From: Candidatus Omnitrophota bacterium
Lineage (GTDB): Bacteria; Omnitrophota; Gorgyraeia; Gygaellales; Profunditerraquicolaceae
Length of the DNA stretch: 64,000 nt
Assembly: GCA_028717245.1 (NCBI GenBank)
Contig: JAQUOD010000002.1
Location: 12,772 to 76,771 of the forward strand
Reading direction: 5' to 3'
The notes beneath the pieces were generated by a model. That model was not told where the DNA came from, did no database searches, and was given only the letters and a program-made list of their open reading frames with translations. Below, one piece after another: positions 15,895 through 33,300 of this stretch. Both the position numbers and the translations under genes were made by a program. Each line of letters opens with the position of its first letter. The stretch's first letter is position 1.

Positions 15895-15987
15895 AGCTGT
15901 TTATATAACATATCTTGGATTCATTGTCAAGACAATTTTGCATTTATAATGCAAATTTGTCTTATAGAATTTATTTTGTGATAAAAA

Positions 15988-16063
15988 GGGCGGCTTCTAT
16001 CTTGAGAGGGGGACACTGTCTTGATTAGGTGGGAAACTGTCTGTGATAAAGGGGACGGTTCTA
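15988..16063. repeat. REP-like element, left flank of transposase: ~56-bp unit plus 18-bp terminal repeat ATAAAGGGGACGGTTCTA
   Basis: 18-mer reverse-complemented at 16797-16814; the 56-bp unit recurs in direct orientation at 16836-16892. Confidence 0.65.
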
Positions 16064-16064
16064 A

Positions 16065-16739
16065 TTATTTACCTTTTGGTGGCCTGCCCCTGTCTTCTCT
16101 CCTGTTTTTTATATTATAATATGCCTGCAGTTTATTGATAAAAGCTTGACTGCCGATATAAAGCCTTTTCTCGAGCATACCCGGATTTATTATACTGTTA
16201 TCTACAACAAAATCAACATATTGCTTTTGTCTCGATGTGGCGGAATCAGATAAACCCAGATAGGCCGGGCTCGGGGTAATGAGCGTGTCGGGCTTGCCTT
16301 TTGCATAGAAATTATAGCTGGAAAAGGGATAGTCGCCAGGATGGCTGACAATACCAACTCTCACCGGGTTCAGTTCAATATATTTTCCGCATTGAAGCAG
16401 ATACGAATCCAACTCAATAATATTGCTCTTAAACCTATCCTGCCAAAAGTGCCCAAAATATCCGTAACGTTTTCGGTAATAATGGAAATAGGTTAAGTTT
16501 ACCTGTTTCATGAATCTCGATACCTTGCTTTCAAGGTTAAGGCGCAGGATGATATGCAGGTGGTTATCCATCAGACAGTAGTGCAGGATATCTATTCTAT
16601 TTTCATCCTTTATTTCCTCTAGCAGTGCATAGTATCTTAATTTGTCGTTATCGCTATGAAAAACATTATTCCTGTTGTTGCCTCTACATATAACATGCAT
16701 GGCTGCATTGATTAAGGTTATCCTTTTATACCGCGGCAT
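16065..16739 (-). CDS. Y1 HUH transposase, IS200/IS605-TnpA or REP-associated tyrosine transposase (RAYT)-like
   Basis: HUH motif NHLHIIL, downstream Tyr-containing YIELNPVR; GAAGGAGG RBS; flanked by inverted REP-like repeats. Confidence 0.75.
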   Translation of the reverse strand: MPRYKRITLINAAMHVICRGNNRNNVFHSDNDKLRYYALLEEIKDENRIDILHYCLMDNHLHIILRLNLESKVSRFMKQVNLTYFHYYRKRYGYFGHFWQDRFKSNIIELDSYLLQCGKYIELNPVRVGIVSHPGDYPFSSYNFYAKGKPDTLITPSPAYLGLSDSATSRQKQYVDFVVDNSIINPGMLEKRLYIGSQAFINKLQAYYNIKNRREDRGRPPKGK

Positions 16740-16796
16740 AAAAAATCCTCCTTCTACTATAATTGACGTAAAAGGAGGGAGAATCTAACTAAAAAA

Positions 16797-16892
16797 TAGA
16801 ACCGTCCCCTTTATTGCCCTTTATTGCCGCATTTAGGGCAGCTTCTATCTTAAGTTGAAGGGTACTGTCTTGATTGAATGGAAAGTGTCTAG
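16797..16892. repeat. REP-like element, right flank of transposase (inverted 18-mer TAGAACCGTCCCCTTTAT + direct 56-bp unit)
   Basis: see left flank; contains GGAAAGTGTCT motif also at 16031 and 17720. Confidence 0.65.
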
Positions 16893-16899
16893 GGGGTAT

Positions 16900-17613
16900 T
16901 TAAAAATTAAATTTTTTAAGGAACTTAGGAATTTCAGAGTCAACTACATTGCCAAAAAAATTTTTAAGTGTTTCTTGATCCACGAGGGTTAATTCTAAAA
17001 ATGATTTCTGCCATCGAGAAAATTTTATATCTTTCCACCACCACCAAGCCCTGTCAAAAACAATTTTCTGCGTAGCCGTATCTACCAAAGTAAAATTTGA
17101 TATAAAATACGCTTTCGCATACCACATCATTAAAAAAGTCTGTACTACAAACCCATATCCATTTACGTGTGTGTACGTATTTCCGAAAATGTTCTCACTC
17201 GGTGATATAATGATAAGTGCGTCGATTCCTTCTGCTTTTAGATTTTGTATATGAGACCTTAGGCGTTCTAGTGATTGTTTAGGGTTTGATTTATATCCGA
17301 AATTCCCCCGCAAACCTTTTCTTAAATCAGGCCTGATTACTGCATTGAGTCCAGAATGATGTTTTAAATATGTAGCTATTGATTCTTCTATTTTTCTATC
17401 CATTCCAAAAGTAGAAAAATCTTCTTCAAATTGGTCATTATTAAATACTGTTGTTCCTATTTTAACGCCATTAAAATTATCACCCATAATAGAAACAACT
17501 GCAATATTATTAATTGATTGCTTATATTCCGATTTAATAGGCTGACCAAGCGTAACACAACCAGATAAAAAGCAAACGAGGCAAAATATAAGAGAATATC
17601 TATTCATAATCAA
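16900..17613 (-). CDS. lipoprotein (signal peptide + lipobox LSGC), AT-rich
   Basis: MIMNRYSLIFCLVCFLSGC N-terminus; AT-rich relative to flanks. Confidence 0.5.
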   Translation of the reverse strand: MIMNRYSLIFCLVCFLSGCVTLGQPIKSEYKQSINNIAVVSIMGDNFNGVKIGTTVFNNDQFEEDFSTFGMDRKIEESIATYLKHHSGLNAVIRPDLRKGLRGNFGYKSNPKQSLERLRSHIQNLKAEGIDALIIISPSENIFGNTYTHVNGYGFVVQTFLMMWYAKAYFISNFTLVDTATQKIVFDRAWWWWKDIKFSRWQKSFLELTLVDQETLKNFFGNVVDSEIPKFLKKFNF

Positions 17614-17627
17614 GTTATTTGAGTAAA

Positions 17628-17746
17628 TAGGGACAGCTGTCCCTATTAGGATTGTATGGGAAAGCGTCTGGTTTATGCTAAATAAAACAAGACGAGATAT
17701 TTTATTTTCATGTTAGAACGGAAAGTGTCTAGTTTACTGGTTTATG
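17628..17746. repeat. REP-like palindrome TAGGGACAGCTGTCCCTA plus GGAAAG(C/T)GTCT and GGTTTA micro-repeats
   Basis: perfect 18-bp palindrome 17628-17645; motif shared with 16031, 16881, 28606-28680. Confidence 0.55.
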
Positions 17747-17791: not shown

Positions 17792-18250
17792 CTATTCTGT
17801 GAATGTATATGTCCAATATTTAATATCTATTTGGGTAATAATGCCGTTTACAAAAGTAATTTTGACCATTCTACCATCTCTTGTGACTGAACCATATACC
17901 CAAATTTCTTTATTATTCTTTCTATCAAATTCCTTAACATCAGGCATTGCTATTATTGCAACCTGTTCATTTGTCATGCCCTTGCAAACCGAGTAATTAC
18001 GGATTGCATTTACTATAGTCTGTTCTAATTCACGATGGTTATTTAAATAATTATTGATGCGCGTATCGATAAGTTTATAATCTACGGCACCTTTATTACC
18101 GAATATTACCTCTTTAACAGGAGGATAGCCACGATAGACAGTAATATAAATAGGCTCTGAATTTAAATTTCTAATGTCTTTAATATATGCGCACCCATTT
18201 AACAATAATATTGCTATTGCATAAATAATAATCAATTGTTTATTATTCAT
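17792..18250 (-). CDS. small lipoprotein (lipobox LNGC) immediately downstream of RHS toxin gene; candidate immunity protein
   Basis: MNNKQLIIIYAIAILLLNGC; AT-rich; toxin-then-immunity gene order. Confidence 0.45.
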   Translation of the reverse strand: MNNKQLIIIYAIAILLLNGCAYIKDIRNLNSEPIYITVYRGYPPVKEVIFGNKGAVDYKLIDTRINNYLNNHRELEQTIVNAIRNYSVCKGMTNEQVAIIAMPDVKEFDRKNNKEIWVYGSVTRDGRMVKITFVNGIITQIDIKYWTYTFTE

Positions 18251-18350
18251 TCCAATTCTTTTAATGAGAAGTAGTTACTTCTCACAATGCCCTCTTTAAA
18301 TTAATAAAATTGTAGAGGCAATAATGAGAATTTTATATGTTAACCCGTCA

Positions 18351-21300
18351 TTAATAAGTTTTATAACCGTGGTAATACTCTAACGTTAAAGCGCCTAATA
18401 TTCCATAAATAGGGGCTGTCAACGGATTGAAGGTTGTAAACATCCCTGCGGAATCAGCCAAATGTGGCGGAACCCAATGAAGAGTAGCCCCAATATCACT
18501 AAATACACTTTGGGCAGTACCTTTTGAATAAAAAGCACTAACTAAATCAAAGTGCCCACCAATATTATTGCCTTGGAGCATCTTGGCTGCTCCTAAAGCA
18601 GTAAGTGTCATCTCACTATGAAGTCTATAGGTGGTTCCAGGATGTCCCAGCATATATTGTGCCAATTGACGGGAAGCCAAACTATTCTTAAATAACAGTT
18701 GCATGCCTCCGCGAATAATATCTGCTGCAACTCCTCTGGATTGGGTATAAATAACTCTACTGCCTGTTTCATTAGCAACCCGTAACGCTTTTTCTGGGGT
18801 GGTCCCTACCCCTTTACCTCGGACAGCCGGATTTCTAACTCCACCTTCCGGATCTTGAATACTAAGCGGATCATGAAAATAACTATTTATTCCTGTTCCA
18901 ACCACTGTCCCAGCAATGCCTCCCACCAGACCACCGGCAAAGCTATCCCAACTGTTAGTAGCACCGGCTACAAATGCTCCGGTTGCCAGCATCCCGACTA
19001 CAAAAGGGGTTCCGATGTTATAAGCTCCCCACCCGCCAAAAGCCCCTAAGGCGCCTCCAATGCCTGCGCCAATCAGGGCGCCTCTCCAGCCGCCTTCCAG
19101 GCCGCCGGTAACTGCACCTCCGGTCATCCCTCCCCAGAAACCCGCAACTGCCCAGGGTAAGCCAGCGCCAGCAGTAACTACAGCTACTACTGCTCCTACA
19201 AATGCCCCGACAATACTCTTCCAAAAGCTTTTCCAGGACCAGTGCCCTGTGGGGTCAATAGCGTTAATAGGATTATTGTTGCAGTAGGAATAACGGTTTA
19301 GTTCCTGGGGGTTATAGGGACGGGCAACCAAGGTATCCGCACTGATAAACCTCCCCACCTGTGGGTCATAATACCGAGCCCCGTAGAAGTAGAGGCCGGT
19401 TGCATCCAGCTCCTTGCCGTTGAACTTGTATTTAGCAGTATCGCTTCCCTGAACCTTAGCAACTCCTCCGTAAGGCTTATAGCTATTGGTCTGGGTGGCT
19501 TTACCTTGACTGTCGCTGATGACGCTGCTTGAGCCGAGATGATCACTGTGGTAGTAATTAGTCGTTAGTCGTTGGCCGTTAGTCGTTAGTGTGCAGACCC
19601 TGTTTGACCCGGCAAAGATGTGTTTGCGGGTTGTGCCGTCGGAATCTATTTCAAAGAGCGAGCCGATGTAGGTGGTCGTTAGTCGCTGGTCGTTAGTCGT
19701 TAGTGTCTTAACGACACGGCCGCCATCGCCATCGTATACGAACGAGGTAATTATACCGCTCTCATTTACCTGGGTCAAGCGGTTCTCAGCGTCATATTGG
19801 TATTGTTCGCTTCCCTTAGAGATTAAATTGCCGTTGGCGTCATAACTAATAACTGTATTGCCGAATTGAGTAGGCGCATGGGGCCTTGCGCCGTATTGGT
19901 AGCCTATGCCTTCCTTCTCTAAAAGGTTACCAATTGAATCATACCTATAATTCAGCGTCCCGTATTCACCGCTTGCCTTAATCAATCTGTCTAAATCATC
20001 ATATTGGAAAGCCTGTGTAGTGTCTTTTACCTTGTCTTCTATTTTAATGATATTGCCTGAATTATCATAGGTATAGCGCAGCTCCTGCAGGACTTCGTTA
20101 TTATTTTGATTCAGAGTGACGATGAGTGAGATTTGCGAGGTATTGGGGAGATAGCGGTAGTAAGTGGTGGTGCCATTGCCGTATTCTATCTTTAAAGTTT
20201 GGCCTGATGCGGCATAATCTATATTTTTTACAAAGACCGTAGAGTCCGTCTGGCTGTAAACCTTCTTGAGCTGGCCTGCTTTATTGTATTCATAGCTGAT
20301 TATTTCCCCGTCAGGATATTTCAGGGAAGTTAATCTGTCTAAAACATCGTAGGTGCGCTCAACGAGATATTGCTGTTCAGGGACAGTCCCCTTGGTTTCA
20401 ATTGAGTTAGATATCTGCGGGGACAGTCCCTTCACTGACTTGATTTCTCTGCCTAAGTTGTCATAGAAGAATTCGGTGGAGCCGGATTGGTCAATGACCT
20501 TGGAGAGCCGGCCGATAGAGTTTTCTTTTGTTAAATCATCGTAGGTATAGGCGGCTAAGGCCTCAGTAACAGCCCCCTGGCTGGGGATGAGCCCCTGTTT
20601 ACGCGTAAGGCGGTTTAGGGCGTCGTATTCAAAAGTAAGGATTTGGCCTTTGGCATCGGTTTGTTTGATTAAATTTCCCACAGCGTCGTATTCATAAGTC
20701 CAGGTTCCCATATCAGGGTCTTGCATTTTTATTTTCCTGCCTAAAGAATCATAAAAGATTTGGCTGGTATTTTTCTGGTTATCCACTACTTTTATCAGGC
20801 TATCCAAAGCATTGTATTCGTAATGGGTGGTATAAACTTCTGCTGCGTTGTATTCTTTTACCTCCACAATCCTGGCATAGGCATCAAAATATTCTTCTTT
20901 TTTATGGTTATTCTCGTCTATATAGGTAACTTTCCAGTCAGAGTAAATAGTTTGGGCATATGTCCCTTCGGGTTTGGTTATTTTAATTAATCTTCCCTTG
21001 GGGTCATAATCAAATTCAAACTTAGCTAAAGCAGTTAAATCGCTCGTATCAGGTTTATCGTTTACTTCAAAAGTATAATAAGCATTATATTTTTCTCGGA
21101 CATTCCCGCGGCTATCAAAGGTTACCCTGCCTGAAACTATTTGACGGGCTTTTTGAATTTGCGGGTCATCTTCTGCCGGAGATTTTATCTGCATAAGCCT
21201 GCCTAAACCGTCGTAAAAAGAGTAGGAGGTAAGATAGTTATTATTCTCGGCTTTTACCTTTTTGGTAACGCGATAAGGCAGGTTAGATAAATCATAATCG

Positions 21301-24300
21301 TAGATAACGCCGGGTGAGTCTTGCGTATCATTAGGGCCAATGGCTTTTATTAGGCGGTAGAGACTATCATAGACATAGGTTGTAGTTTGATTATTCAAGT
21401 CAGTAGTGGTCAGCACCAGGCCGCTTTTTAAATCAAAGGTCTTCTTGACGGTCTGGCCTAAAACATTGGTTGCCTTAATCGGATAGGTATAAGTCTGGGT
21501 ATCGTATTCCGTAGTAGTTGTCCTTCCCAAGGCATCAGTAGTTGAAATAAGGTTACCGTAAGAATCGTAAGTAAAAGTTGTGGCTAAGTATTTTTCCTCA
21601 CTGGTTAAAGGATTAAACAGCCAGGCCTCTTCTTTGGTAAGCAGGCCCTTAGCCGGAGCCTGGTTAATATCAGTTGTATTATCATAATAGAAGCGTTTTT
21701 CAGAAACTTTTTGTTGGTTGTATAAAAGAGAAGTGCGCTTAGGAAGCGCAATTGCCCAGTCAGAAGTGTTATAAGCATATTCGGTAGTTTGCGTCTTATC
21801 GTCTTCAATGATATCCACGTCACCATAATATATAACCTTGGTAGTATTGCCGTAATTATCATATTCAAATTCTGTGCGGGCATGTTTATAGCTTGCGTCA
21901 CCGTCATAGGTAAAATTATCGGCTGAGGAAAGATAGACAAAATAAACGCCCGGGTAAATTTCCGTATGCTGCCAGACATTTTCTATCTTAGAGTATAAGT
22001 TTCCGTCTTTATTTTTAAATTCCTGTTCATAGAGGCGGCCTTTATAGATGTTGTCCTGCTTAAAATAACTTTCTGTATAATTACCGTCGGCATCGCTGAC
22101 CTTGACATAGCTAAAGCCGCGGAACTCCCGCTCTTTTGGCTCAAAATAACCGTCTTTATAAAAATAAGTTGTAGGATAGGAATTGCCCTGGTTGTCTTCC
22201 AGGGTGAGCCTTGAGACAAGCTGCAGGCTAAAAGGGAGCTTACCGGTTTTATTGGGATAATAATTTTCATATTGAGTAGAAGAGGTATATTCAATTTTAG
22301 CCTTTGCGCCTAAGCCATTTGCGACTTCTACTAAAAGGTCGGCAGGTCCGGATAAATTTAGATAGGTCTTTTTATAACCGTCTTTGGCAATACAGATATC
22401 CATTAAACCATCCCCGTTTAAATCGGTTAAATAACGGGCCTGGTCGCGGCCCTGGCTATCCACAAAATCTCCGTCTGTAATATTAAAGGAGTCGTCTCTC
22501 CTCCAGCCTGAGCCAGTGTTTAAGTAAGTGGCGCGGTAACCGTCTTTAGCAATTAGCAAATCATTCAGGCCGTCTGCGTTTATATCTATCAGCACCCTTC
22601 CCTGGTTAACGCCGTTTTCGGTAAAATTACCGTCGGGAAGATTAAAGGCGTCATTCCTCACCCAGCCCGAGCCGGTATTAAGATAAGTAGCCTTATAGCC
22701 GTCAGCCGCGACTAAAAAGTCAGCTAAACCGTCGCCGTTGACATCCGCTAAGCGCCTTCCATTATCGCCTGATGCCGTAACATAATAACCGTCAGGCGAA
22801 TTCCAGCGCGCATCTTGCTGCCAGCCGCTTCCGGTATTAATATAAGTGGTGGTTGTCCGGGATATCACGTCAAGCGGCCGATAACTCCAATGTATCTCGT
22901 CAACGGCAATGGATAAGTCATTCAAGCCGTCGCCATTAAGGTCAGCGAATCTTATCCCGCCGTCTATGTGGTTACCATAAACAAAATATCCTTCAGGTAA
23001 ATTCCAGCTCGTATCTTTAAACCATTGAGGGTCAATGTTGTCAAGGTACTGAAAGGAGTAAGCATCTTTATATTGCCCGCCTGAACCCAGATACGGGTCC
23101 CAGAGCGCAGCTGCTAATAATTCGGGCATGCCGTCGCCGGTTAAATCTACGAGCCTGCGCCCGTCATCCCAGGTATTATAGATAAAATAACCCAAAGGTA
23201 CCGGCCACCAGTTGGGCTGCGAACTAAAACCCTGCGTGGAATTAAGATATGTAGCTTTTAACCACTGGCGGTCTGTTGATTCGTTGGGGTCGTAACGGGA
23301 GACAATAAAGTCATATAAACCATCGCCGTTTAAATCATAAAGCCCCCTGCCCTGGTTTTGTTCGGATTTGATAAAATCTCCGTCGGGGATATGCCACTGC
23401 GGCTGGTCGCCAGACCAAGCGCCGGAATTAGAACGATAGGAAAAAGTCAAAGGAGGCTGTGCGGTTTGGCCGTCAGAGCCATATTCGGTTACCTTGGTTA
23501 AGAGGCTCCTTGAGGTGGAAGGGCTTTGGGTATATTCAAGGCCGTATCTGCGTACCAGGTTATTATCAAAAGAGACCTCAATACTCTTTAGCCGTTTAAG
23601 CAGTTTTATTGGTTCGCCGGTAATATAGCTTAAAGATGTATCCGGCCTGGGTTCATAGGCGAAAGTAACTTTATAGCTTGCCGCAAGCTGAGTCTGCGCG
23701 TTTGCAGTATAGGAGATATTCAAAGGATAAAGGGTATTCTCTTCTTTAGAGTAACTGATGGTTAGATAATTACCTTCTAAATCCATCACCTTATCCAATG
23801 CCCAGGAAAAAATGCCTTTTGAGGTCGTGATGCGCGAGTTATCCGTCGAGCCGAAGAAATATTTTATTCCCTGCTTATCAGTTGTCTGCCAGGAAGCGCC
23901 GTCATAAACATATTTTATGAAACTGCCTTCAATTTCAGCCCTGTATTCATTATTGCCTGTGCTTATCAGTTCCTGGCTTTGGGCAATAAAGGCATCAGAG
24001 GAATTATAATCAGGAACGCCGCCTTTAGTAGAACGGTAAATACTGCCCAAATCTAAATCCCAGCCTTTTCCGGCTAATCCGTTGCCTTTAAGACTGCTGT
24101 AGGAGAGCGCTAAGTGCGGCTCTATCCCGTTTCTGCCTGCCGGAGTTTGTACCGGGATAGAGAATGTTGCCTGCCCGGTTAAAAGGTCAACGCCCAAATT
24201 TTCCAGCCCGTTTGAACTTTTGGGAACATCAGGGGAAGCGGTATCCGCAGAGACCGGCTCTTGATAATCCTCTTCGCTTAATTCATCCGATAATTCCGTA

Positions 24301-26411
24301 GGTATAGGGCTTTTAGAAAAAGATTGGACCACTTTAAAAGTCATTACCGCGCTCCAGTTGCTTTCCCCCTCGGTTTTTACTACCTTTACGCGCGCATAGT
24401 AATTCCCCGCCGTATCTAATTCGCTTAATTCGAGGGAATTAGAAGCCGATTCATAAGCTTTGGGGTTTTTAAAGTCAGCATCGGTAGAGATTTCTACTTT
24501 GTAATTTGTCGCCCCTGCTATTGCACTCCAATTTATCTTAGTAGTGCTTTGGAGCAGAGTATCATTAACCGCTTCTAATACGGGCGCGGTTATTGCAGGA
24601 GGAATAGGCGCAGGAGGAGTAGGCGGGTTGGGTGTTGGTGGTGGTGGGGTTGGGGGAATACCGCCTCCGCTACCACCAGAACCAGAAGTAGGTTGTTTGG
24701 GAGGAGGCGGCGGATTAACAACGTTAACGCTTAACTCACCCGTAGATGGATCCCGATTAATTTCTATGGTATTGCCGGTAGCAGGGTCTTTGTAGCTTTT
24801 ATCAGTCTCGCCGGGAGCTAAATCTATCTGGATTCCTTTAACTATTGCCCTTGCGCTGCCATCAGGATAAGCAGCGCGTGTGATAGTATCACCATTTACA
24901 TCCTTGGTAGAAGTATAGCCTAACCCTTTATTATTGCTGTAGGTAATATTGCCATTAGCGTCTATTTTAGTCTCGCTACGATAATCATCAGGGCCAACTG
25001 TTGTTTTTGTAATGCTGCCGTCGGGATGAGAGGTTGTTGTGGCCACGCTTCCGTCATCGCCATATGTTATCGTCGGCGTAGCGGTGCTACCACCGCTATT
25101 ACTGTTTACGCTCCTCTGTCCGCCTGTGGATGATATAGCTGGGGGTGTTGTTTGCGTTCCGCTTCCGTTAGAATTAACAATGGTAGTGGAATAACCACCA
25201 TTGCTATCGTAAGTGTTAGTTACGGTAGTGCCGGCTAAGGAACCGCCACTGCTTGCCGGATGATTATCCACAGTACTTGTAACCGCACCACCCGGGCTTG
25301 CATAGGTGATAGTCCTGGTGCTACCATCAGCATAGGTAGCAACGCCGGTATTGCCATTTCTCACAAGAGTTATGCCTCCGTTTGCCGCACCTGCGCCAAA
25401 AAGAGTTGTTGTCTCGCCATCCGAACCCCAAATTCCTTGCGTTTGACTGACGCTTAAGGCCTGGCCAATACCTGCCTCGGTGGTCAGGGCATATCCTATC
25501 CATTGGGCAGTGAATTCAGCTAATGATACGGTTTTTGTGATACTGTTATCTATATAGGTAATGCCTTCAACATCAATTCCGGTCACTACTACATAGTGGC
25601 CAAGGCCATTTCCTAAGTCTAAATGGGCAATTGCCGGTTGATTTAGATTTTTGAGGTCAGTAAGGGAGAGTTGGCTGGCGTAAAGATCCAAACCATATTC
25701 TTTGGCTACTTGCTGGATTCCATAGAGAGAGGTCTGGCCGTCTTGAGTATATAAGGCCAAGCTTTTAGCCAATATAGCGGAGTTGACATTAGACAAGAGT
25801 TGGGAGAGTGCGTAGACTGCGCAGTTCGGGATTGGAGGGCCGTGGTTATAAAGGTCAGCTTGGTACGTATTTATAACTGCTTTCTGTTCTTCGGGTTGAA
25901 TTCGTACGCTTTGGTTATTTTGGGGCTTTATGGCAGTGTCCTTATTTACCTGGCCATAAACTGGTATAGAATTTCCCTTTAGGCCCGCTACTAATTTGTC
26001 TTTTATGGGTTGAGGCTGGGTTTGCGGTGCAGGTGCGGATTGACTGGTGGCATCTATTGGTTTTACGGGTGTTTCTACGAAAACCGTATTATTTAAGTTA
26101 ACCGTTTGTTTGGCAGGTTTAAAGGATTGGGAATACGAAGCTGGCATAACGCCGGGATTATCATTCAAACAAGACGATATTTCCTCTGCATGCGCTAGGG
26201 GGACTATAAAAGAGGCTATTCCTTGGTAAATATTCCATAAAAAATCCCCCAATTTCGGTTGGGGGATTTGCGGGTAGCTAGTTTGCTCGGTTTGCGGCAG
26301 AGATATATGGTAGTCTGCTCTGGCTGCCCAGGTGACCTCGGAAAATAAAAACACTCCGGAAATAGTCAGGGCAACAATTTTTAACCACAATCTTTGACGT
26401 AAAGGATTCAT
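18351..26411 (-). CDS. giant RHS/Tc-toxin-like polymorphic toxin (~2686 aa): signal/TM, C39-like peptidase domain, Pro-rich linker, FN3, SpvB/TcaC N-terminal domain, FG-GAP/VCBS repeats, YD-repeat RHS shell, ...DPTGHW core end, Gly-rich hydrophobic + variable C-terminal toxin domain
   Basis: ORF track 18351..26435 starts at TTG; the ATG at 26411 (MNPLRQRLW) has a AAAGGGGA RBS; motifs NCAVYAL/GHYVVV (C39-like), DLNGDGL x6, many YD repeats, RYYDPQVGRFISADT...NPINAIDPTGHW. Confidence 0.85.
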   Translation of the reverse strand: MNPLRQRLWLKIVALTISGVFLFSEVTWAARADYHISLPQTEQTSYPQIPQPKLGDFLWNIYQGIASFIVPLAHAEEISSCLNDNPGVMPASYSQSFKPAKQTVNLNNTVFVETPVKPIDATSQSAPAPQTQPQPIKDKLVAGLKGNSIPVYGQVNKDTAIKPQNNQSVRIQPEEQKAVINTYQADLYNHGPPIPNCAVYALSQLLSNVNSAILAKSLALYTQDGQTSLYGIQQVAKEYGLDLYASQLSLTDLKNLNQPAIAHLDLGNGLGHYVVVTGIDVEGITYIDNSITKTVSLAEFTAQWIGYALTTEAGIGQALSVSQTQGIWGSDGETTTLFGAGAANGGITLVRNGNTGVATYADGSTRTITYASPGGAVTSTVDNHPASSGGSLAGTTVTNTYDSNGGYSTTIVNSNGSGTQTTPPAISSTGGQRSVNSNSGGSTATPTITYGDDGSVATTTSHPDGSITKTTVGPDDYRSETKIDANGNITYSNNKGLGYTSTKDVNGDTITRAAYPDGSARAIVKGIQIDLAPGETDKSYKDPATGNTIEINRDPSTGELSVNVVNPPPPPKQPTSGSGGSGGGIPPTPPPPTPNPPTPPAPIPPAITAPVLEAVNDTLLQSTTKINWSAIAGATNYKVEISTDADFKNPKAYESASNSLELSELDTAGNYYARVKVVKTEGESNWSAVMTFKVVQSFSKSPIPTELSDELSEEDYQEPVSADTASPDVPKSSNGLENLGVDLLTGQATFSIPVQTPAGRNGIEPHLALSYSSLKGNGLAGKGWDLDLGSIYRSTKGGVPDYNSSDAFIAQSQELISTGNNEYRAEIEGSFIKYVYDGASWQTTDKQGIKYFFGSTDNSRITTSKGIFSWALDKVMDLEGNYLTISYSKEENTLYPLNISYTANAQTQLAASYKVTFAYEPRPDTSLSYITGEPIKLLKRLKSIEVSFDNNLVRRYGLEYTQSPSTSRSLLTKVTEYGSDGQTAQPPLTFSYRSNSGAWSGDQPQWHIPDGDFIKSEQNQGRGLYDLNGDGLYDFIVSRYDPNESTDRQWLKATYLNSTQGFSSQPNWWPVPLGYFIYNTWDDGRRLVDLTGDGMPELLAAALWDPYLGSGGQYKDAYSFQYLDNIDPQWFKDTSWNLPEGYFVYGNHIDGGIRFADLNGDGLNDLSIAVDEIHWSYRPLDVISRTTTTYINTGSGWQQDARWNSPDGYYVTASGDNGRRLADVNGDGLADFLVAADGYKATYLNTGSGWVRNDAFNLPDGNFTENGVNQGRVLIDINADGLNDLLIAKDGYRATYLNTGSGWRRDDSFNITDGDFVDSQGRDQARYLTDLNGDGLMDICIAKDGYKKTYLNLSGPADLLVEVANGLGAKAKIEYTSSTQYENYYPNKTGKLPFSLQLVSRLTLEDNQGNSYPTTYFYKDGYFEPKEREFRGFSYVKVSDADGNYTESYFKQDNIYKGRLYEQEFKNKDGNLYSKIENVWQHTEIYPGVYFVYLSSADNFTYDGDASYKHARTEFEYDNYGNTTKVIYYGDVDIIEDDKTQTTEYAYNTSDWAIALPKRTSLLYNQQKVSEKRFYYDNTTDINQAPAKGLLTKEEAWLFNPLTSEEKYLATTFTYDSYGNLISTTDALGRTTTTEYDTQTYTYPIKATNVLGQTVKKTFDLKSGLVLTTTDLNNQTTTYVYDSLYRLIKAIGPNDTQDSPGVIYDYDLSNLPYRVTKKVKAENNNYLTSYSFYDGLGRLMQIKSPAEDDPQIQKARQIVSGRVTFDSRGNVREKYNAYYTFEVNDKPDTSDLTALAKFEFDYDPKGRLIKITKPEGTYAQTIYSDWKVTYIDENNHKKEEYFDAYARIVEVKEYNAAEVYTTHYEYNALDSLIKVVDNQKNTSQIFYDSLGRKIKMQDPDMGTWTYEYDAVGNLIKQTDAKGQILTFEYDALNRLTRKQGLIPSQGAVTEALAAYTYDDLTKENSIGRLSKVIDQSGSTEFFYDNLGREIKSVKGLSPQISNSIETKGTVPEQQYLVERTYDVLDRLTSLKYPDGEIISYEYNKAGQLKKVYSQTDSTVFVKNIDYAASGQTLKIEYGNGTTTYYRYLPNTSQISLIVTLNQNNNEVLQELRYTYDNSGNIIKIEDKVKDTTQAFQYDDLDRLIKASGEYGTLNYRYDSIGNLLEKEGIGYQYGARPHAPTQFGNTVISYDANGNLISKGSEQYQYDAENRLTQVNESGIITSFVYDGDGGRVVKTLTTNDQRLTTTYIGSLFEIDSDGTTRKHIFAGSNRVCTLTTNGQRLTTNYYHSDHLGSSSVISDSQGKATQTNSYKPYGGVAKVQGSDTAKYKFNGKELDATGLYFYGARYYDPQVGRFISADTLVARPYNPQELNRYSYCNNNPINAIDPTGHWSWKSFWKSIVGAFVGAVVAVVTAGAGLPWAVAGFWGGMTGGAVTGGLEGGWRGALIGAGIGGALGAFGGWGAYNIGTPFVVGMLATGAFVAGATNSWDSFAGGLVGGIAGTVVGTGINSYFHDPLSIQDPEGGVRNPAVRGKGVGTTPEKALRVANETGSRVIYTQSRGVAADIIRGGMQLLFKNSLASRQLAQYMLGHPGTTYRLHSEMTLTALGAAKMLQGNNIGGHFDLVSAFYSKGTAQSVFSDIGATLHWVPPHLADSAGMFTTFNPLTAPIYGILGALTLEYYHGYKTY
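25420..26411. repeat. inverted duplication arm 1 (5' ~1 kb of RHS gene), partner at 29291-30300
   Basis: ~85-90% nt identity when reverse-complemented, e.g. AAAATTGTTGCCCTGAC...GGGCAGCCAGAGCAGACTACC. Confidence 0.7.
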
Positions 26412-26464
26412 TTTGCTTGAGTCCCCTTTCGTCAATATAATTAAAACTCAAATAACTAATATAA

Positions 26465-26493
26465 AATATAACATATAAAAAGTAAGATGTCAA
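26465..26493 (-). promoter_or_regulatory. near-consensus sigma70 promoter for the RHS gene (TTGACA-17-TATATT)
   Basis: read on minus strand; ~55-nt leader to ATG 26411. Confidence 0.5.
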
Positions 26494-26597: not shown

Positions 26598-28415
26598 TTA
26601 GATTTTAAGGCTATAACCCGTGGCTTTTTTGAGGCTGGCGAGAGAGGTTTGGTAATTACCCAGCGCCTGGATATATTTTGCCTGCGACTCCGAAAGATTA
26701 TACAGGGATTCCATCGCGCTAGAGAGGTTGGCTTCACCGACCATGGAACGGATCTTAATCACGTCTGTTTCATTGCGCCGGAATTTCATCTCCATCTCCG
26801 CGGTATTTAATTGCGAGATGGCCTTTTGGTAGTTAAAAAATGCCTCCTGGACCTCAAGGGTCACGGCCTTGGTAGTTTCATTAAAGTCGCTCAGGGAACG
26901 CCAGAGGTCTATCTCTGATTTTTTCTTATCCGATACGCGCTTAAGGTTATCCAGGACGCTGAAGTCCGCGCTGACCATTTGATACTTGCTGGGCTCGGCC
27001 TCGCCAAAGCGCGCCCTCTGTTTCTGGGCATTATAAGAAGTGCTGAAGGTGCTGCCTCCCCAGGGCTTGGTTAGCTTTACCCCGGCGAACCAGTTGTCCG
27101 TGTCTTCCCAGGGAGTATTGATATAATGCCCTTTGTAATACCCGTAAGAAGAGGTTAGGTCTATGCTGAAGGAATTTACGTCGCTGCGCTTCATCTTTTG
27201 GCTGTAGTCATTAAACTTTACCAGGAGCTCGCTTAAACGGATTTCCGGATGGTTAACCAGGGCCATCTCCGTGCAGGTAGATAATTCTAACTTTGTTTTT
27301 TTTGGCGCTGATAATCGCGGGGGCATAATATTGCCCAGTTCCTTGGTATTCAATACCTGCTTTAAGGTTAATTCCGCGTTCAAAACGTCTTGTTTTATGT
27401 TATCGGCCTGGAATTGTATTTGGTCAAACCAGGAACGCGCGCTATTTACTTCCAGGGGGATGACCATATCCGCCTGGCCTAATTTCTCTATTTTTCCCAG
27501 GGTCTCTTTCGCTTCCTCAAGAAGCGCCTCCTTGAGCCGCAGGTGCATCTTGGCCACGGCTAAATTATAATAGGCGGTTTCGGCCTTCTGCATCAATTCA
27601 AACTTAATGCGGTCATAATTTTTTTTGGTGATTTCCAAATCTACCCCTGCCTGCCTTACCGCATTCACTAATTGTCCTCCGCGAAAGAGCGGCTGGGTCA
27701 CTTCTACCGCAGGTTCCCATTCTTCGTAATCTACTTTATAGACATCGCCGTCTGTTTTATAGCCTGATATTTTTAGGGTAGGAAAGAGGTTGCGCTGGTT
27801 TTCCAGGATTTTAAACTGGGCCAATTCAATTTCCTGGCGCGCCACCTTAAGGGGCGGGTTGTTTTTTATGGCCAGGTCAACGAAATTATAGAGCGCCGGG
27901 TCAAGTTCCGCAGCGGCCCCTTTAAAATCTTCAGCCGACGTTTGCTTTTCTTCAACCGTTTCAGATAATCTTATAGGCTGCGTTAAATATGCCTGTTGTA
28001 AGGTCGGCATCTCTTGCGGTTCGCTCGGCTCTAAGGATTTATCCTGTTCGTAACTTATCGGCACAACCATCTCCAGTTCTTCCTTATTATAACCTTGGGG
28101 CAGGGGATAGGGGCTGGCGTCTTTTACGGCTAAGAGCGCCCCGGCATCCAGCAAGGGATAACCCGATGATTCCGCGATATTAATTTCTTTTATCCGGCCA
28201 CCCTGGTCCAGGGTGAACCTTACCTTTACCATGCCTTCCCAGCCTTTGGTTTGTGCCTCTTGCGGATAGACAAAACAAGCGCTTATTTTTTGCTGTATTG
28301 AGCTGATGTATTCGGGATTTAATAAAGCGGCCCGGGAGTAAGCGGGGTAGAGCAGGAGGAAGTTTATAAGAGCTATTATTCGGTATATTTTAACTATTTT
28401 ATGATCTATCTCCAT
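26598..28415 (-). CDS. outer membrane efflux protein (TolC-like) with N-terminal TonB_C-like domain
   Basis: TonB C-terminal signature ...GMVKVRFTLDQGGRIKEINIAESSGYPLLDAGALLAV...; then OEP/TolC-type repeats. Confidence 0.75.
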   Translation of the reverse strand: MEIDHKIVKIYRIIALINFLLLYPAYSRAALLNPEYISSIQQKISACFVYPQEAQTKGWEGMVKVRFTLDQGGRIKEINIAESSGYPLLDAGALLAVKDASPYPLPQGYNKEELEMVVPISYEQDKSLEPSEPQEMPTLQQAYLTQPIRLSETVEEKQTSAEDFKGAAAELDPALYNFVDLAIKNNPPLKVARQEIELAQFKILENQRNLFPTLKISGYKTDGDVYKVDYEEWEPAVEVTQPLFRGGQLVNAVRQAGVDLEITKKNYDRIKFELMQKAETAYYNLAVAKMHLRLKEALLEEAKETLGKIEKLGQADMVIPLEVNSARSWFDQIQFQADNIKQDVLNAELTLKQVLNTKELGNIMPPRLSAPKKTKLELSTCTEMALVNHPEIRLSELLVKFNDYSQKMKRSDVNSFSIDLTSSYGYYKGHYINTPWEDTDNWFAGVKLTKPWGGSTFSTSYNAQKQRARFGEAEPSKYQMVSADFSVLDNLKRVSDKKKSEIDLWRSLSDFNETTKAVTLEVQEAFFNYQKAISQLNTAEMEMKFRRNETDVIKIRSMVGEANLSSAMESLYNLSESQAKYIQALGNYQTSLASLKKATGYSLKI

Positions 28416-28605: not shown

Positions 28606-28680
28606 TAGGGACGGTTCTCAATTACGGTTAAAATTGTCCCTTTTGGGGACAGTTTTATAGTTGACTGAGAACCGTCCCTA
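28606..28680. repeat. REP-like nested palindrome TAGGGACGGTTCTCA ... TGAGAACCGTCCCTA with inner GTCCC/GGGAC hairpin
   Basis: 15-bp perfect inverted repeats 28606-28620 / 28666-28680; same core as repeats flanking the transposase. Confidence 0.65.
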
Positions 28681-28734: not shown

Positions 28735-29061
28735 ATGCGTTGTAAGATCTGTCAAAATGAGTTTAAACCTAATAAATACCGGCCTCAACAGCAGGTTTGT
28801 TCTCAACCGGAATGCCAAAAGCAGAGGCAGCTTCAGAATGAAAGGGGATGGCGGCTGAAAAACCCCGATTATTTCAAGTCTTTAGGGCAAGAAGCGTTCT
28901 GGCGGGAAAAACGCTCTCAATACCGTAGATTATGGAAGAAAAAACACAAAAAACACCTCAAAGAATATGCCGAAAAGCGCAAAAAAGAGCACCAGGAATA
29001 TATGCGCAAATATATGGCCGGATACCGCGCAACCCAGAATGTTAATAGAGAAAAAAGTTAG
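28735..29061 (+). CDS. small zinc-ribbon protein with highly basic C-terminal half
   Basis: CKICQ..CSQPEC motifs; 108 aa; ORF track. Confidence 0.5.
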   Translation: MRCKICQNEFKPNKYRPQQQVCSQPECQKQRQLQNERGWRLKNPDYFKSLGQEAFWREKRSQYRRLWKKKHKKHLKEYAEKRKKEHQEYMRKYMAGYRATQNVNREKS

Positions 29062-29290: not shown

Positions 29291-30300
29291 TTGAGTAACT
29301 GGCGAGAAAAAATCTGGTTAAAAATTGTTGCCCTGACCATTGCCGGAGTATTTTTATTTTCCGAAACCACCTGGGCAGCCAGAGCAGACTACCGCGTATC
29401 TATGCCTGAAACCGAGCAAACAAGCTACCCGCAAGTCCCCCAACCGAAATTGGGGGATTTTTTATTGAATATTTATCACGAAATAGCCTCTTTTATAGTC
29501 CCTTCAGCTCAAGCGGCTGAAATAGCGCCTTGCGGTGTAGATAAAGTAACTAAGAATATGCCTGTCTTAAATCCCAATTCTAATTGGCAAAAAGCCAATC
29601 AAACCGTAGTTTTATCAGAAAATAAGGCAATTGATACGGTTGATACAGTTGATACGGTTAAAAATAGCTTAATTGAAGAAACTGGAGATATGAGAGTAGC
29701 TGAAGCTGAGCAGAAGCCGCAAGGAGATGCGCCAGCGCCAACCCCAACGGTTAAGGATTCCGCGCTTCCTGCCCAAGCTCAGCCGCCTCAAGGTTCCGAG
29801 ACTCCCTCTGTCCCCGTAGATTACACTAAGATTAATAATACCAACGATCAAACCGGCTTTATTCCGATTAAACAAGCTCAATTACCTCAAGAAACCGCAG
29901 CGATTACTTTACATAGCAAGGATCCGCCTAAGATGAGCTTCAACTGCGCAGTCTCCGCACTCTCTCAACTCTTGTCAGATGTCAACTCCGCTATATTGGC
30001 TAAAAGCCTGGCCTTATATACTCAAGACGGCCAGACCTCTCTCTATGGAATCCAGCAAGTAGCCAAAGAATATGGTTTGGATCTTTACGCCAGCCAACTC
30101 TCCCTTACTGACCTCAAAAATCTAAATCAACCCGCAATTGCCCATTTAGACTTAGGAAATGGCCTTGGCCACTATGTAGTAGTGACCGGAATTGATGTTG
30201 AAGGCATTACCTATATAGATAACAGTATCACAAAAACCGTATCATTAACTGAATTCACTGCCCAATGGACAGGATATACGCTTACTACCGAGGCAGGTAT
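29291..30300. repeat. inverted duplication arm 2 (5' ~1 kb of giant plus-strand gene)
   Basis: see arm 1; encodes same TM + Pro-rich + C39-like module. Confidence 0.7.
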
Positions 30301-33300
30301 TGGCCAGGCCTTAAACGTTGAGCAGAGCTATAGCATAAAAGGGGCAGTGCCTTCTTTAAGCTATTTTGCCGCACCAGACGGTAATCTATATCAGAGAACC
30401 GGTGTGGGTGAAAATGGCCAGATGCAGAGCGTGCTCTATCATGGCAGCCAGACTTCTTCCTTTGGGTATAAAGGCACAAATTATCAAACCACCATCTCTG
30501 CCAATCAAGGCACAATCACTTATTCCGGCTATTTCCTGGGTGAAGATGGTAACCTGTATAAGATACCTGATAACAATTCCGGTCCAATCCAAGGCAACTT
30601 ATATGAAGGAACCCAGTCCCAGCCTTTTGACTATAAAGGGGCTACCTATCAAACCACCATTTCTGCTAACCAGGGCACCATCACCTACTCCGGTTATTTC
30701 AAAAGCGAAGACGGCAACCTCTATAAGATAACCGGCGCAGATGATGACGGCCAAATCCAGGGTTCCCTTTATGATGGCGAGCAGAATTCTTCCTTTGAAT
30801 ACAAAGGCACTACCTATCAAACCACTATCTCTGCTAACCAAGGCGTAATTATTTATTCCGGTTATTTTAAGGGCGAGGATGAAAACCTCTATAAGATTAC
30901 CGGCACCAGCGATGACGGCCAAATCCAGGGCACGCTCTACGACGGCAGCCAGATAGATTCCTTTGAATATAAAGGCGCTACCTATCAGACCATTATTTCT
31001 GCCAACCAAGGCGCAATTACCTACTCCGGATATTTCAAAGGCGAAGACGAGAATCTCTATAGGATAACCGGCGCAGATGAGGAGGGTAAGATTCAGGGCT
31101 CATTCTATGACGGATTTCGCGTTCTTGAGACCTATACTTATGCGGGGCAAAGCTACCAGATAGAAATGACTGCCACCCAAGGCCAGATTACTTATTCTGG
31201 TTTTTTTGTGGGCAGCGATGGCAACCTCTATCAGGTAACCGGCGCTGACGCCTCTACCGGCAATATCCAGGGCACTCTCTATACCCCTTCTACTGAATTG
31301 AATTGCGCGGTTCAGTCCTTAAGCGTGCTCCTGCCTGATATAGGCTCTGCTACTTTAACCCAGGAACTTCTTCCTTATACGGTTAATGGCCAGACGTCTA
31401 TGTACGGCATCCAGCAGGTCGCCAGCAAATACGGCTTAAACCTTTATGCGGTAGAATTCTCCTTAGAAGAAATCCTGCAATTAGGAGAAGGCGCCATTGC
31501 CCATTTAGTGGTGGGTAGCAATCAGGGCCACTGGGTGGCGATTTATCCAGAAAAAGGTATTTATATTGATAATGGCATAGAGAAATCCCTTGATGCTTCA
31601 GAATTTGCTACTCAATTTAGCGGATATATCCTAACCGTCCAATCGGATATTGGCCTGGCCTTAACAAATGAACAGATGCAGGGCATACAAGGGAGTGAAG
31701 TAGAACACTGGGATTTTAGTACGGATACGCCAGGTCCATATGAATTGGGTGGAGGAGCAGATGAGGGCGGCGTTGATATTACGATAAATGATGATGGCTC
31801 GGCTACTTATACCTATCCTGATGGTAGCTCAAGGGACGCCACATTTGATTCAGATGGTAATCTTACGAGCACTACTGATCATGACAGCGATGGCACTACC
31901 ATAATTAATGTTTATGGTGACGTAGATATTGGTATAGATGGAGACGAAGACGTAGACATTAATATAAACCAAGGGGGCAATGGATATATTGCTGTGGCCG
32001 GCGGCAATGTGGATATTACTATAAATGCCGGCGGCAATTTATCAAGTTTTACTATGACCGGCGGTAATGCAACTATTACTGCAAATGCAGAAGCTACAGG
32101 ATATATCGCAGGAGTAAGCGGCGGCACGCTCAATATCACAGATAACGGAGGGGACACGAGTGATATATATATAAATTCTGATGGTTATACCGGCGGTGTT
32201 ATAACTGTAGACGATAATCCAATTTCACTACCACCAGGCACACCACTATCCTATGAACCCGATTCAGATACTCCTGGGGTGGGTTCTTCTTCTGTAGCAG
32301 GTTATAATTGCGCAGTTTACGCCCTCTTGCAATTCCTCCCAGGTATAGGCCTTACAGCTTTAGCGCAAAAAATCAACGTAGAAAATTATAAATACCAAAT
32401 AGAGGCATTTAACAAAATTATAAGTAGTGAAATTTTCTTTGAAGTAATCATCAGAGTGGCTTCTGATTACGCTTTAGACTTAAACGCGGTTAAACTTACC
32501 TTAGAAGGGCTTCAGCAAATAGCAGAGCCGGCAATCGTCCATTTAGACTTAGGGAATGGCCAGGGCCATTATATAGTGGTTACCCAAACCGCAGATAACA
32601 CAATTACCTACATAGATAATGAGATCATCAAGACTGTATCAGAGGATGATTTTACGGCCCTCTGGACAGGATACGCCTTAATTACTCAACCAAATAATAT
32701 AGGAGAAGTTTTGGCCCTTCAGGAGATACTGAACATAAAAGGCGCTACGGTAACTATCGGAGGCCGTCGTGTTGGCGGCAGTAGTAGTAAAGGCAGCAGT
32801 AATTCAGGCGGCGGTAATACAACTGCTGGAGGCGGCAGCACTACTCAGCCCGCACAATCCCCTTCAATAGTCTCAGGCCCGCCAATGCCGCAAAGTTTAA
32901 AAGAATATCAAGATTTAAATAAAACTTTTCTCAATACCGACAAATATACTTATCAATATGACCGCAGCAAAGATATGCTAACCGTATACGACCATACAGA
33001 CCCCTCTAATGTTACAGCTATTATGGTTTATTATGATGCTACAGTTAGATCTGGGGATAAGCTCGTTGATGCTACTATTACCATAACAGTAGGTGGAGGA
33101 TCTCTTGTTGGCGGTGCCAAACCTACTTCTCCGGTTACGGTTATTGATGAGCCCGGTAAGGGTCCGTGGGTAGTTGATTTAACTGAAGTCTCTGATGGTT
33201 CACGGGTAACATATAATTTTATCGAAGGGACGACAACTACAATAACAGGTTCAGGAGGGCAAGATAATTCAACTATGGTTATAGATGATTGGAAAACAGG

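Follow-up and report, generated by a model that had tools for sequence, protein, structure and literature searches.

A 64,000-nucleotide stretch of a Candidatus Omnitrophota genome (contig JAQUOD010000002.1, positions 12,772 to 76,771; hereafter the window) carries on its minus strand a gene that is, judged by its domain content, an RHS/Tc-like polymorphic toxin of the TcB-TcC fusion type with an exchangeable C-terminal tip. The interpretation that we favour, with somewhat better than even confidence, is that of a Sec-exported RHS cocoon whose cargo would consist of a glycine zipper and an alpha/beta-hydrolase-like tip, whose producer would be protected by the downstream lipoprotein lip1, and whose front end would be an export module of giant proteins. 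RHS cocoon toxins are well characterised in Proteobacteria, with delivery by type VI secretion (T6SS) or TcA. Here the same cocoon, its front end different and its cargo modular, is seen in a phylum of which little is known and which is probably predatory or epibiotic. Its main interest lies in the reusable zipper module, in an unclassified family of mini-hydrolase tips with exported partners, and in a module common to an adjacent giant gene. Feature coordinates are collected in Table 1.

The toxin gene and its product

The stop-free frame extends over 18354-26447, and the open reading frame (ORF) listing places the start at a TTG, giving 18351-26435. The ATG at 26411 is a likelier start and is preceded by AAAGGGGA, a good ribosome-binding site. 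The 2,686-residue product from this ATG is identical to NCBI MDD4980038.1, encoded on a 271,845-bp contig of a Candidatus Omnitrophica metagenome-assembled genome (MAG) and named there 'SpvB/TcaC N-terminal domain-containing protein'. Below, residue numbers of Pfam and NCBIfam domains and of DPTGHW are counted from the TTG start, while Ser2599, Asp2653 and His2681 of the tip are numbered in the 2,686-residue protein. The gene has a putative sigma70-like promoter of its own, read by eye at about 26460-26492, with TTGACA, a spacer of about 16 nucleotides and a -10 box of the TATATT/TTATAT type. A promoter and terminator scan of the interval between the toxin gene and the RAYT-like transposase gene found nothing exceeding chance.

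From N- to C-terminus the product comprises a signal peptide, a C39-like peptidase domain, fn3, the SpvB/TcB N-terminal domain, FG-GAP, TcdB_midN, a YD shell and the Rhs core. Pfam matches are to SpvB at residues 753-922 (E=1.4e-26), to FG-GAP and FG-GAP_3 at 1230-1348 and to TcdB_toxin_midN at 1332-1465 (E=8.8e-24). RHS_repeat is matched over six stretches (Pfam E=8.3e-35), as is TIGR01643 at E=3e-30, and the NCBIfam entry Rhs_assc_core (TIGR03696) is matched at 2319-2398 over its full length (profile positions 1-76 of 76; 85 bits, cut-off 32.5). The fn3 match at 630-700 scores 20.7 bits, under the Pfam cut-off of 25; ahead of it come a low-complexity stretch rich in Thr, Gly, Ser and Asn and a poly-Pro linker (together at about 24567-25424). 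Among PDB sequences the toxin matches Rhs proteins (down to 2e-36), TcdB2-TccC3 (E=4e-33), Tse5, YenC2 and teneurin-like proteins. The preliminary description of this DNA, made by reading its sequence without database searches, had named an RHS/Tc-like toxin with SpvB/TcaC-N, FG-GAP, a YD shell and DPTGHW; Pfam, NCBIfam, the PDB matches and the alignment to TccC3 all uphold it.

The Rhs core reads GRFISAD...NNPINAIDPTGH/W, where the slash marks the cleavage point, compared with GRWLSSD...NNPVTLLDPDGL in TcdB2-TccC3, both Asp residues being aligned. The DPTGHW motif is found at residue 2394. The core with its two catalytic Asp residues and the DPTGH/W cleavage motif are intact, and cleavage itself is predicted.

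The Tc BC subunits, exemplified by TcdB2-TccC3 of Photorhabdus and YenB/YenC2 of Yersinia, share with this protein SpvB, FG-GAP, TcdB_midN, the YD shell and a core with two Asp and DPxG that can be aligned residue by residue to TccC3, the B and C parts being joined in a single polypeptide. Unlike them, it has a Sec signal and a 740-residue N-terminal extension (leader, C39, low-complexity region and fn3), and its cargo is a zipper and a predicted hydrolase with an exported partner downstream, where TccC3 and TccC5 carry an ADP-ribosyltransferase. A further difference is that no TcA gene, and likewise no PAAR or VgrG, was found when Pfam was run on the long ORFs of the 64-kb window and on the first 10,000 residues of the giant ORF; a T6SS or Tc-complex effector was considered and, since none of these components was found in the window proteins scanned, dropped.

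Compared with the RHS protein of the related locus L009, identity is 37% in the shell, 61% over the last 440 residues and 77% in the tip. The disparity between shell and tip is consistent with cassette exchange and, along with the different tips found behind a single zipper (see below), it bears out the earlier proposal that the tip is variable.

A glycine-zipper module shared by unrelated tips

The stretch after DPTGHW is 122 residues long, with 27% Gly, five charged residues and 16 GxxxG motifs. In composition-preserving shuffles GxxxG occurs 8.4±2.2 times, and 16 was reached in one of 2000. Weak matches to Gly-zipper families are found in Pfam. A search with the sequence from DPTGHW to the end against 5.8 billion proteins produced 40 hits, 17 of which align to the C-terminus and so include both zipper and tip. 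The remaining 23 match the zipper only, at 50-63% identity over query residues 1 to about 125, and have different sequence beyond. The zipper closes with a conserved motif, ATNSWDSFAGG, and the sequences found after SWDSFAGG fall into five or more unrelated tip clusters; those following the zipper in relatives include a domain of the TNT NAD+ glycohydrolase type (E=7e-30), DUF4329 and DUF7689. Named hits belong to Omnitrophota, Elusimicrobia and one Planctomycetales MAG. That the zipper is kept while the tips differ shows it to be a conserved module. The Gly-rich hydrophobic stretch noted earlier at this position is therefore real, but its conservation in relatives with different tips means that it is not a linker.

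The best functional analogue of the module is found in Tde1, a T6SS DNase of A. tumefaciens whose N-terminal zipper permeabilises the target membrane and is needed for delivery (PMC10240207). In both proteins an enzymatic, or here predicted enzymatic, toxin domain has repeated GxxxG motifs on its N-terminal side. Tde1 differs in not being an Rhs protein and in having a short zipper, whereas the present one, of about 120 residues, comes right after the Rhs cleavage site and is common to many tips; the likeness is an analogy of motif and function, with no homology claimed. If it is a general membrane-entry device, the zipper would be a defined and widely reused 'pre-toxin' element of the polymorphic-toxin toolkit, and this would explain how one carrier could serve tips with different action sites.

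Glycine-zipper toxins that depolarise membranes are documented, and among Rhs proteins there are some whose C-terminus forms pores (Tse5; PMC9637101, PMC10684867). The zipper might thus itself be the toxin, a membrane-depolarising pore former comparable with Tse5, EsxX or the Cdz bacteriocins, with the hydrolase a mere accessory. The many GxxxG motifs, the Gly content, the near absence of charge, the Gly-zipper matches and the strong conservation in relatives could all be read in this way. We nevertheless consider it unlikely. The same zipper precedes tips as different as those listed above, including a TNT NADase, which fits a delivery module as in Tde1. Immunity to a pore former should follow the zipper, and the downstream partners (see below) instead change with the tip; moreover, whereas Tsi5 is an integral membrane protein, these partners are lipoproteins or exported proteins of a soluble kind. 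Finally, the invariance of Ser, Asp and His in the tip argues for selection on catalysis.

Bacterial Rhs polymorphic toxins such as Tse5 (RhsP1) of P. aeruginosa are among the closest known systems (PMC9637101, PMC10684867). Common features are the Rhs shell, the autoproteolytic core, exchangeable tips, an adjacent protective gene (here a candidate) and a hydrophobic, membrane-active C-terminal segment (here predicted), and the classical orphan tip and immunity arrays seen in two relatives of the present locus (L003 and L017) are another likeness to Rhs toxins of this type. The differences are that here no link to PAAR, VgrG or T6SS was found in the window proteins scanned, that a predicted enzymatic domain follows the hydrophobic segment, and that the candidate immunity protein is a lipoprotein where Tsi5 is an integral membrane protein.

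The tip as a putative minimal alpha/beta-hydrolase

The C-terminus had been described as a domain of about 250 residues and unknown fold. Neither part of that description holds: the folded tip domain comprises about 175-186 residues and is predicted to be an alpha/beta-hydrolase with a Ser-Asp-His signature. Among 18 aligned tips the invariant features are GxGTT, RxG, H-S-E, D153 and H181, the putative triad corresponding to Ser2599, Asp2653 and His2681 of the full protein. When 29 sequences are aligned the Ser and Asp are invariant, the invariance of His being a property of the 18-sequence alignment only. An AlphaFold2 (AF2) model of the tip built from the alignment, with predicted local distance difference test (pLDDT) 83 and predicted template modelling score (pTM) 0.80, has alternating strands and helices, and places the Ser between the strand at 94-98 and the helix at 100-111.

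A Foldseek comparison of the region after DPTGHW had been suggested. Run on the tip against the PDB, it gave nothing significant (best E=0.013, TM-scores 0.3-0.4), yet the top matches are mostly alpha/beta-hydrolases, namely carboxylesterases, cutinases/PETases, antigen 85, lipases and thioesterases. A profile of the 29 sequences, searched against PDB sequences, likewise reaches a cutinase (E=0.06) and class-3 lipases (E=0.13), these matches together spanning E=0.06-0.3, with Ser and Asp aligned. The phmmer search of PDB sequences with the tip found no usable match, and neither did Pfam and NCBIfam searches with the isolated tip and zipper, the tip lacking a Pfam hit even at E≤10. Each of these tests is sub-threshold and all point the same way, to a predicted minimal alpha/beta-hydrolase.

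The tip is far from isolated. Its profile, run against 1.84 billion cluster representatives, retrieves 105 proteins at E≤1e-3 and 30 at ≤1e-10. The long hits are proteins combining SpvB, FG-GAP, TcdB_midN and RHS; in nearly all of 40 members examined, the tip domain lies 50-180 residues beyond DPxG[HYF] and bears the elbow [AG]HS[EQ]G. The elbow of the window tip and its nine closest relatives reads LHSEM. Weak matches to Tle3, DUF900, Lipase_2, Ser_hydrolase and PE-PPE are seen at the elbow in distant members. An independent C-terminal domain is thus present as had been supposed, in the form of a separate tip of about 180 residues whose family numbers about 105 clusters and which, in nearly all of the members examined, recurs behind an RHS cleavage motif.

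Alpha/beta-hydrolase tips are a recognised class of polymorphic toxins (Tox-ABhydrolase-1/2/3; Zhang et al. 2012, PMC3482391). Like these and the T6SS Tle lipases, the present family has a predicted alpha/beta-hydrolase tip, a GxSxG-type elbow and exported partners, and its weak Tle3, DUF900 and Lipase_2 matches, as well as the class-3 lipases among its best PDB matches, lie in the same direction. Unlike them, the window tip has no Pfam or NCBIfam match, is much smaller at about 180 residues and possesses the atypical LHSEM elbow. The family is unclassified in the sense of being absent from Pfam and NCBIfam; it may coincide with one of the Tox-ABhydrolase-1/2/3 families. With about 105 clusters, almost always RHS-borne, it would represent a family of lipase-like toxin domains of very small size.

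Exported partners and candidate immunity

Two AT-rich lipoprotein genes directly downstream had been put forward as immunity genes. Both are present as described, each product having a lipobox and each gene lying in DNA of 32-34% GC between flanks of 40-55%; lip1 follows the toxin gene at a distance of 100 bp. Nor are they conserved housekeeping genes. The 90% cluster of lip1 has two members, both from Omnitrophota MAGs, and lip2 has only five homologues, of 52-61% identity. Weak BamE/OsmE-like signals are obtained for lip1 (NCBIfam E=0.0017, BLAST E=0.005, hhalign E=6e-4).

The downstream gene was read in eight sequenced loci with this tip family, six of them non-redundant. In every one an exported protein is encoded directly downstream of the tip, usually with overlapping stop and start codons. 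In L001 and L002 this partner is lip1, as in the window. Elsewhere it varies: a family of signal-peptide proteins of 291-295 residues, unrelated to lip1 and lip2, follows the tips of L009 (77% identical to that of the window, and the most similar full-length relative) and of L003 and L007 (58-62%), while lipoproteins of 199 residues and of 132 residues, the latter weakly BamE-like, follow those of L018 (68%) and L006 (43%), respectively. The idea that lip2 is a diverged member of the 291-295-residue family was rejected by profile comparison, which found no similarity to either lipoprotein. As the case of L009 shows, the partner is not fixed. Partners that are always exported, usually translationally coupled and variable between loci are the pattern expected for a toxin acting outside the cytoplasm, and their consistent export predicts an envelope target for the tip family. 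The phospholipases of the T6SS Tle group have periplasmic Tli immunity proteins.

Locus L019 comes from an independent metagenome and has the closest related tip with downstream context (76% identity). Reading of its contig revealed a lip1 homologue that starts within the 3' end of the tip gene. The partial product ends ...AILLLSGCAYVKHISNLNSEPIY, the lip1 counterpart being ...AILLLNGCAYIKDIRNLNSEPIY; across the lipobox region 22 of 32 residues are identical by hand count, and BLAST aligns 14 of 18 (E=2e-8). The presence of a lip1 homologue after such a similar tip, taken together with the consistently exported partners, makes lip1 a reasonable and credible candidate for the cognate immunity protein. 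Two concatenated homology searches found no lip1 homologue, but they did not find lip1 itself either, so that this negative is weak. A locus search with a narrow alignment yielded one genome and three metagenome loci, too few for statistics on partner co-variation.

The position of lip2 is different. Its homologues are found in cassette islands elsewhere, where their neighbours are small genes of unrelated kinds and what may be a short remnant of a RAYT, identified by eye (L011, 1307-1453), and in the window a copy of a sequence like repetitive extragenic palindromes (REP) lies between lip2 and lip1. It is a separate cassette, perhaps an orphan immunity gene or an accessory gene. Of the earlier assignment of both lipoproteins to immunity, then, the part concerning lip1 is credible in the light of L019, while that concerning lip2, whose homologues occur in islands without this tip, does not stand.

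It could also be supposed that neither lipoprotein confers immunity, both being accessory or orphan cassettes that come with RAYT and REP elements, and that the toxin is directed at non-kin (archaea, for example) as prey or hosts, with the producer shielded by the closed cocoon alone. The pairing of the L009 tip with a protein family absent from the window, the lip2 homologues in islands lacking this tip, the REP-like copies after each lipoprotein gene and a GC content unlike that of the toxin gene are all compatible with this, as is the suggestion that Omnitrophota are predators or parasites (10.1101/2023.11.21.568195). The lip1 homologue that begins inside the tip gene of L019 comes, however, from an independent sample, and an exported downstream partner at eight of eight loci, usually with the stop/start overlap that is a hallmark of toxin-immunity pairs, would be hard to account for; we therefore regard the absence of an immunity role for both as improbable.

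An N-terminal module in common with a giant gene

The preliminary description had pointed to the C39-like domain as unusual. For an RHS protein it is so, but it is not peculiar to the toxin, being found with 97% nucleotide identity in the adjacent giant gene. Peptidase_C39 (PF03412) matches at 204-320 with 57 bits (cut-off 22). The catalytic residues of the ComA peptidase, which we take to be Cys17, His96 and the following Asp, align with Cys197, His272 and Asp288 of the toxin (PDB 8hf6). An oxyanion Gln about six residues before the Cys was not found, the preceding sequence being YNHGPPIPN with Gly at -6; the alignment to ComA begins at the Cys. Neither an ABC transmembrane domain nor a nucleotide-binding domain was found in the toxin protein by Pfam and NCBIfam. 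Of the leader, residues 1-29 resemble a Sec signal peptide (MNPLRQRLWLKIVALTISGVFLFSEVTWA/AR), with a second hydrophobic motif, IASFIVPLAHAEEI, next to it.

Two other proteins of Omnitrophota type, P0151 and P0152, conserve the initial 80 residues, and P0151 also has a C39-like domain. Among the other proteins fetched, of which about 20 are long RHS proteins whose tips are related, the N-terminal module was not matched again, and three long RHS relatives examined with Pfam have no C39. Since the module is present in the giant gene and P0151 but not in other RHS relatives, it is unusual for an Rhs toxin and yet appears to be a borrowed one.

The giant gene diverges from the toxin gene. Its open frame runs from 29255 off the end of the window, over at least 11,582 codons, or at least 11,570 from the TTG at 29292. 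The gene is absent from the ORF listing. In the first 10,000 residues of its product Pfam recognises four Peptidase_C39 domains, all N-terminal, and one Peptidase_M50 near residue 8,750, but nothing else; it resembles the giant genes reported for Omnitrophota. Two inverted repeats, 25450-25826 / 29942-30318 (377 nucleotides, 97% identity) and 26170-26414 / 29288-29532 (245 nucleotides, 84% identity), lie in-frame within the 5' coding regions of the RHS and giant genes and flank a TolC-like gene. Recombination between them may flip 4 kb and so swap the 5' ends and regulatory regions of both genes. The Logan contig L001 breaks off within the repeat, about 24 codons short of where the repeat stops, which is how a genuine repeat should behave when short reads are assembled.

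The gene between the two leader-C39 genes encodes an outer-membrane protein with a TonB C-terminal-type domain at residues 49-123 followed by TolC-like OEP repeats, which by inference from position could be an export partner of the leader-C39 proteins. According to two preprints, full-length Omnitrophota giant proteins have C39 domains near signal peptides (West-Roberts et al. 2023, bioRxiv 10.1101/2023.11.21.568195), and a 24-protein PF03412 architecture cluster is reported for the phylum, as are TonB-domain genes flanking giant genes (2026 preprint, 10.64898/2026.06.07.730766). In term searches of both, RHS figures in the former as a structural comparison only and is absent from the latter. 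Like the 'Archaeovorin'-type giants, the toxin has a signal peptide and then C39; unlike them, it has only 2,686 residues and an RHS toxin for its body. The leader and C39 domain would thus be an export or processing module typical of the phylum, either copied from the neighbouring giant gene or shared with it, and through this module the giant proteins of Omnitrophota, whose biology is still unexplained, are linked to a protein small enough to be tractable.

A more far-reaching proposal, tentative and on balance doubtful, is that the leader-C39 module and the TonB_C/TolC-like protein constitute an export route specific to Omnitrophota, serving both giants and RHS cocoon without TcA or T6SS, with the cargo entering membranes by means of the tip-independent zipper of about 120 residues. 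If true, a toxin of 2.7 thousand residues with a scorable phenotype would offer a tractable handle on giant-protein secretion.

Some regulatory features accompany the giant gene. A c-di-GMP-I-GGC riboswitch aptamer (Rfam RF03167) is found at 29165-29251 on the plus strand, 40 nucleotides upstream of the giant-gene TTG (73.9 bits, gathering score 59, E=2.9e-16); none was found upstream of the RHS gene. At 2773-6418 (minus strand) a signalling cluster encodes a response regulator with GGDEF, a GAF histidine kinase and a FIST protein, and this cluster and the riboswitch are a hint that the region may be controlled by c-di-GMP. A small ORF at 28735-29061 (plus strand), located between the riboswitch and the TolC-like gene, encodes a very basic 108-residue product with Cys-x2-Cys and Cys-x4-Cys pairs.

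Proposed mode of action

Under the interpretation that we favour, the cargo would be enclosed in the shell after autoproteolysis at DPTGH. On delivery, by analogy with Tde1, the zipper would insert into the target membrane and position or translocate the tip, which, from the extracytoplasmic side, would attack the cell envelope as an esterase or lipase. Protection of the producer would come from the exported partner, here lip1; we infer this from the exported protein downstream in every sequenced locus and from the homologue in L019. The N-terminal 330 residues (leader and C39-like domain) would not be part of the toxin proper but an export or processing module of giant surface proteins, held in common with the adjacent giant gene through recent recombination. 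With this module in common, toxin and giant protein probably use the same route, possibly via the TonB_C/TolC-like protein. The lip2 gene and the RAYT would belong to a cassette-shuffling periphery rather than to the toxin-immunity pair.

Several points weigh against this picture. No TcA, PAAR or VgrG that might bring the cocoon to a target was found in the window proteins scanned. The TNT family acts as NAD+ glycohydrolases in the cytoplasm, so that its presence behind the same zipper means that the role of the latter could be translocation rather than anchoring. None of the matches between the tip and a named hydrolase reaches significance (E≥0.013 with Foldseek, E≥0.06 with hmmsearch); the C-terminal helix bearing His2681 is modelled at a pLDDT of about 50, so that the triad geometry is tentative, and the LHSEM elbow has neither of the small residues of the canonical G/A-x-S-x-G. 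Enzymatic activity and toxicity of the tip are predictions from sequence and model. As for lip1, its role rests on one partial syntenic homologue, that in L019, the L009 tip being paired with an unrelated 295-residue protein instead, and its AF2 single-sequence model is poor (pLDDT 39).

Least probable, in our view, is that the protein is not an inter-cellular toxin at all but a factor for surface attachment or cell-wall degradation, with the RHS shell as scaffold and the esterase acting on prey polymers: the leader-C39 module and locus common to the giant gene, the attachment and cell-wall-degrading roles proposed for giant Omnitrophota proteins (10.1101/2023.11.21.568195), the teneurin-like PDB matches and the lack of TcA or a T6SS adaptor among the window proteins scanned would accord with it, but the autoprotease core and cleavage motif are intact, tips move as cassettes, each with its paired gene downstream and with orphan copies elsewhere, and relatives have TNT and other toxin tips at the same position, all of which define polymorphic toxins and not scaffolds.

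Locus periphery

Table 1. Features of the RHS toxin locus and its surroundings (window coordinates)
Feature	Position	Strand	Evidence or remark
RHS/TcB-TcC-type toxin gene	18351..26411	-	2,686 aa, ATG start
Conserved 80-aa leader	26172..26411	-	common to giant gene, P0151, P0152
C39-like papain-fold peptidase domain	25476..25826	-	Pfam, ComA alignment
fn3-like domain	24336..24548	-	Pfam, below cut-off
SpvB / TcB N-terminal domain	23670..24179	-	Pfam
FG-GAP / FG-GAP_3 repeats (TcB beta-propeller)	22392..22748	-	Pfam
TcdB_toxin_midN	22041..22442	-	Pfam
YD/RHS-repeat shell	19482..22040	-	Pfam, NCBIfam, PDB sequence matches
Rhs-associated core, aspartyl autoprotease plug	19242..19481	-	NCBIfam, TccC3 alignment
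Glycine-zipper hydrophobic module, ~120 aa, ends ATNSWDSFAGG	18891..19238	-	search alignments, shuffles
Toxin tip, putative minimal alpha/beta-hydrolase-like domain	18354..18890	-	alignments, AF2, Foldseek, profile searches
lip1, 152-aa lipoprotein, lipobox LLNGC	17792..18250	-	best immunity candidate
lip2, 235-aa lipoprotein, lipobox FLSGC	16900..17607	-	rare family, separate cassette
RAYT-like Y1 (HUH) transposase	16065..16739	-	Pfam Y1_Tnp E=1.6e-18
REP-like repeats bracketing RAYT	15977..16892		direct and inverted repeats
TonB_C + TolC-like (OEP) outer-membrane protein gene	26598..28415	-	between both leader-C39 genes
Giant gene 5' end, same leader-C39 module	29292..30318	+	TTG 29292, runs beyond 64000

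A RAYT/REP cluster had been described next to the toxin. The RAYT is well matched by Y1_Tnp, though at 68.5 bits it is under the cut-off of 80 for NCBIfam REP_Tyr_transpos, and it is flanked by repeats, namely a direct repeat of about 55 nucleotides (15987-16035 and 16835-16892) and the inverted repeat AAAGGGGACGGTTCTA (16048-16063 and 16797-16812). These have only two or three copies in 64 kb, a further partial REP-like copy being located outside the RAYT span, after lip1, at 17703-17732. The cluster is accordingly real as regards RAYT and flanking repeats and less certain as a REP system. GGGAC palindromes resembling the RAYT-flanking repeats are seen at 28606-28680 (TAGGGACGGTTCTC...GAGAACCGTCCCTA) and at about 17627-17640 (GGGACAGCTGTCCC), and are possibly the REP family of this genome.

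RAYT genes or fragments are found a few kb downstream of RHS tip/immunity cassettes in six independent loci, that of the window included, the others being L003 (1728-1991), L006 (1404-1994), L009 (7980-8534), L016 (3869-4558) and L017 (8529-9119). In the window and in L016 the RAYT adjoins an AAA_14/DUF4143 ATPase gene. By analogy with the H-rpt elements of E. coli Rhs loci, this association may reflect cassette shuffling. Beyond the RAYT and the ATPase in the window come two AcrB-type genes and one for a membrane fusion protein (MFP), and we considered whether an RND efflux operon (OEP ... AcrB, AcrB, MFP) might have been interrupted by the whole island, with which the gene order is compatible.

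Hint-type sequences are encountered in two relatives. The RHS ORF of L009 (121-6570) contains a Hint/intein-like insert (CFLAGTRVMMADG...YLVHN) at about 5000-5500, shortly before the Rhs core, and in L017 a PT-HINT fragment separates an orphan tip from the main RHS gene. Elsewhere in the window, a zeta-toxin/AAA_33 kinase-like gene is present at 574-1161 on the plus strand.

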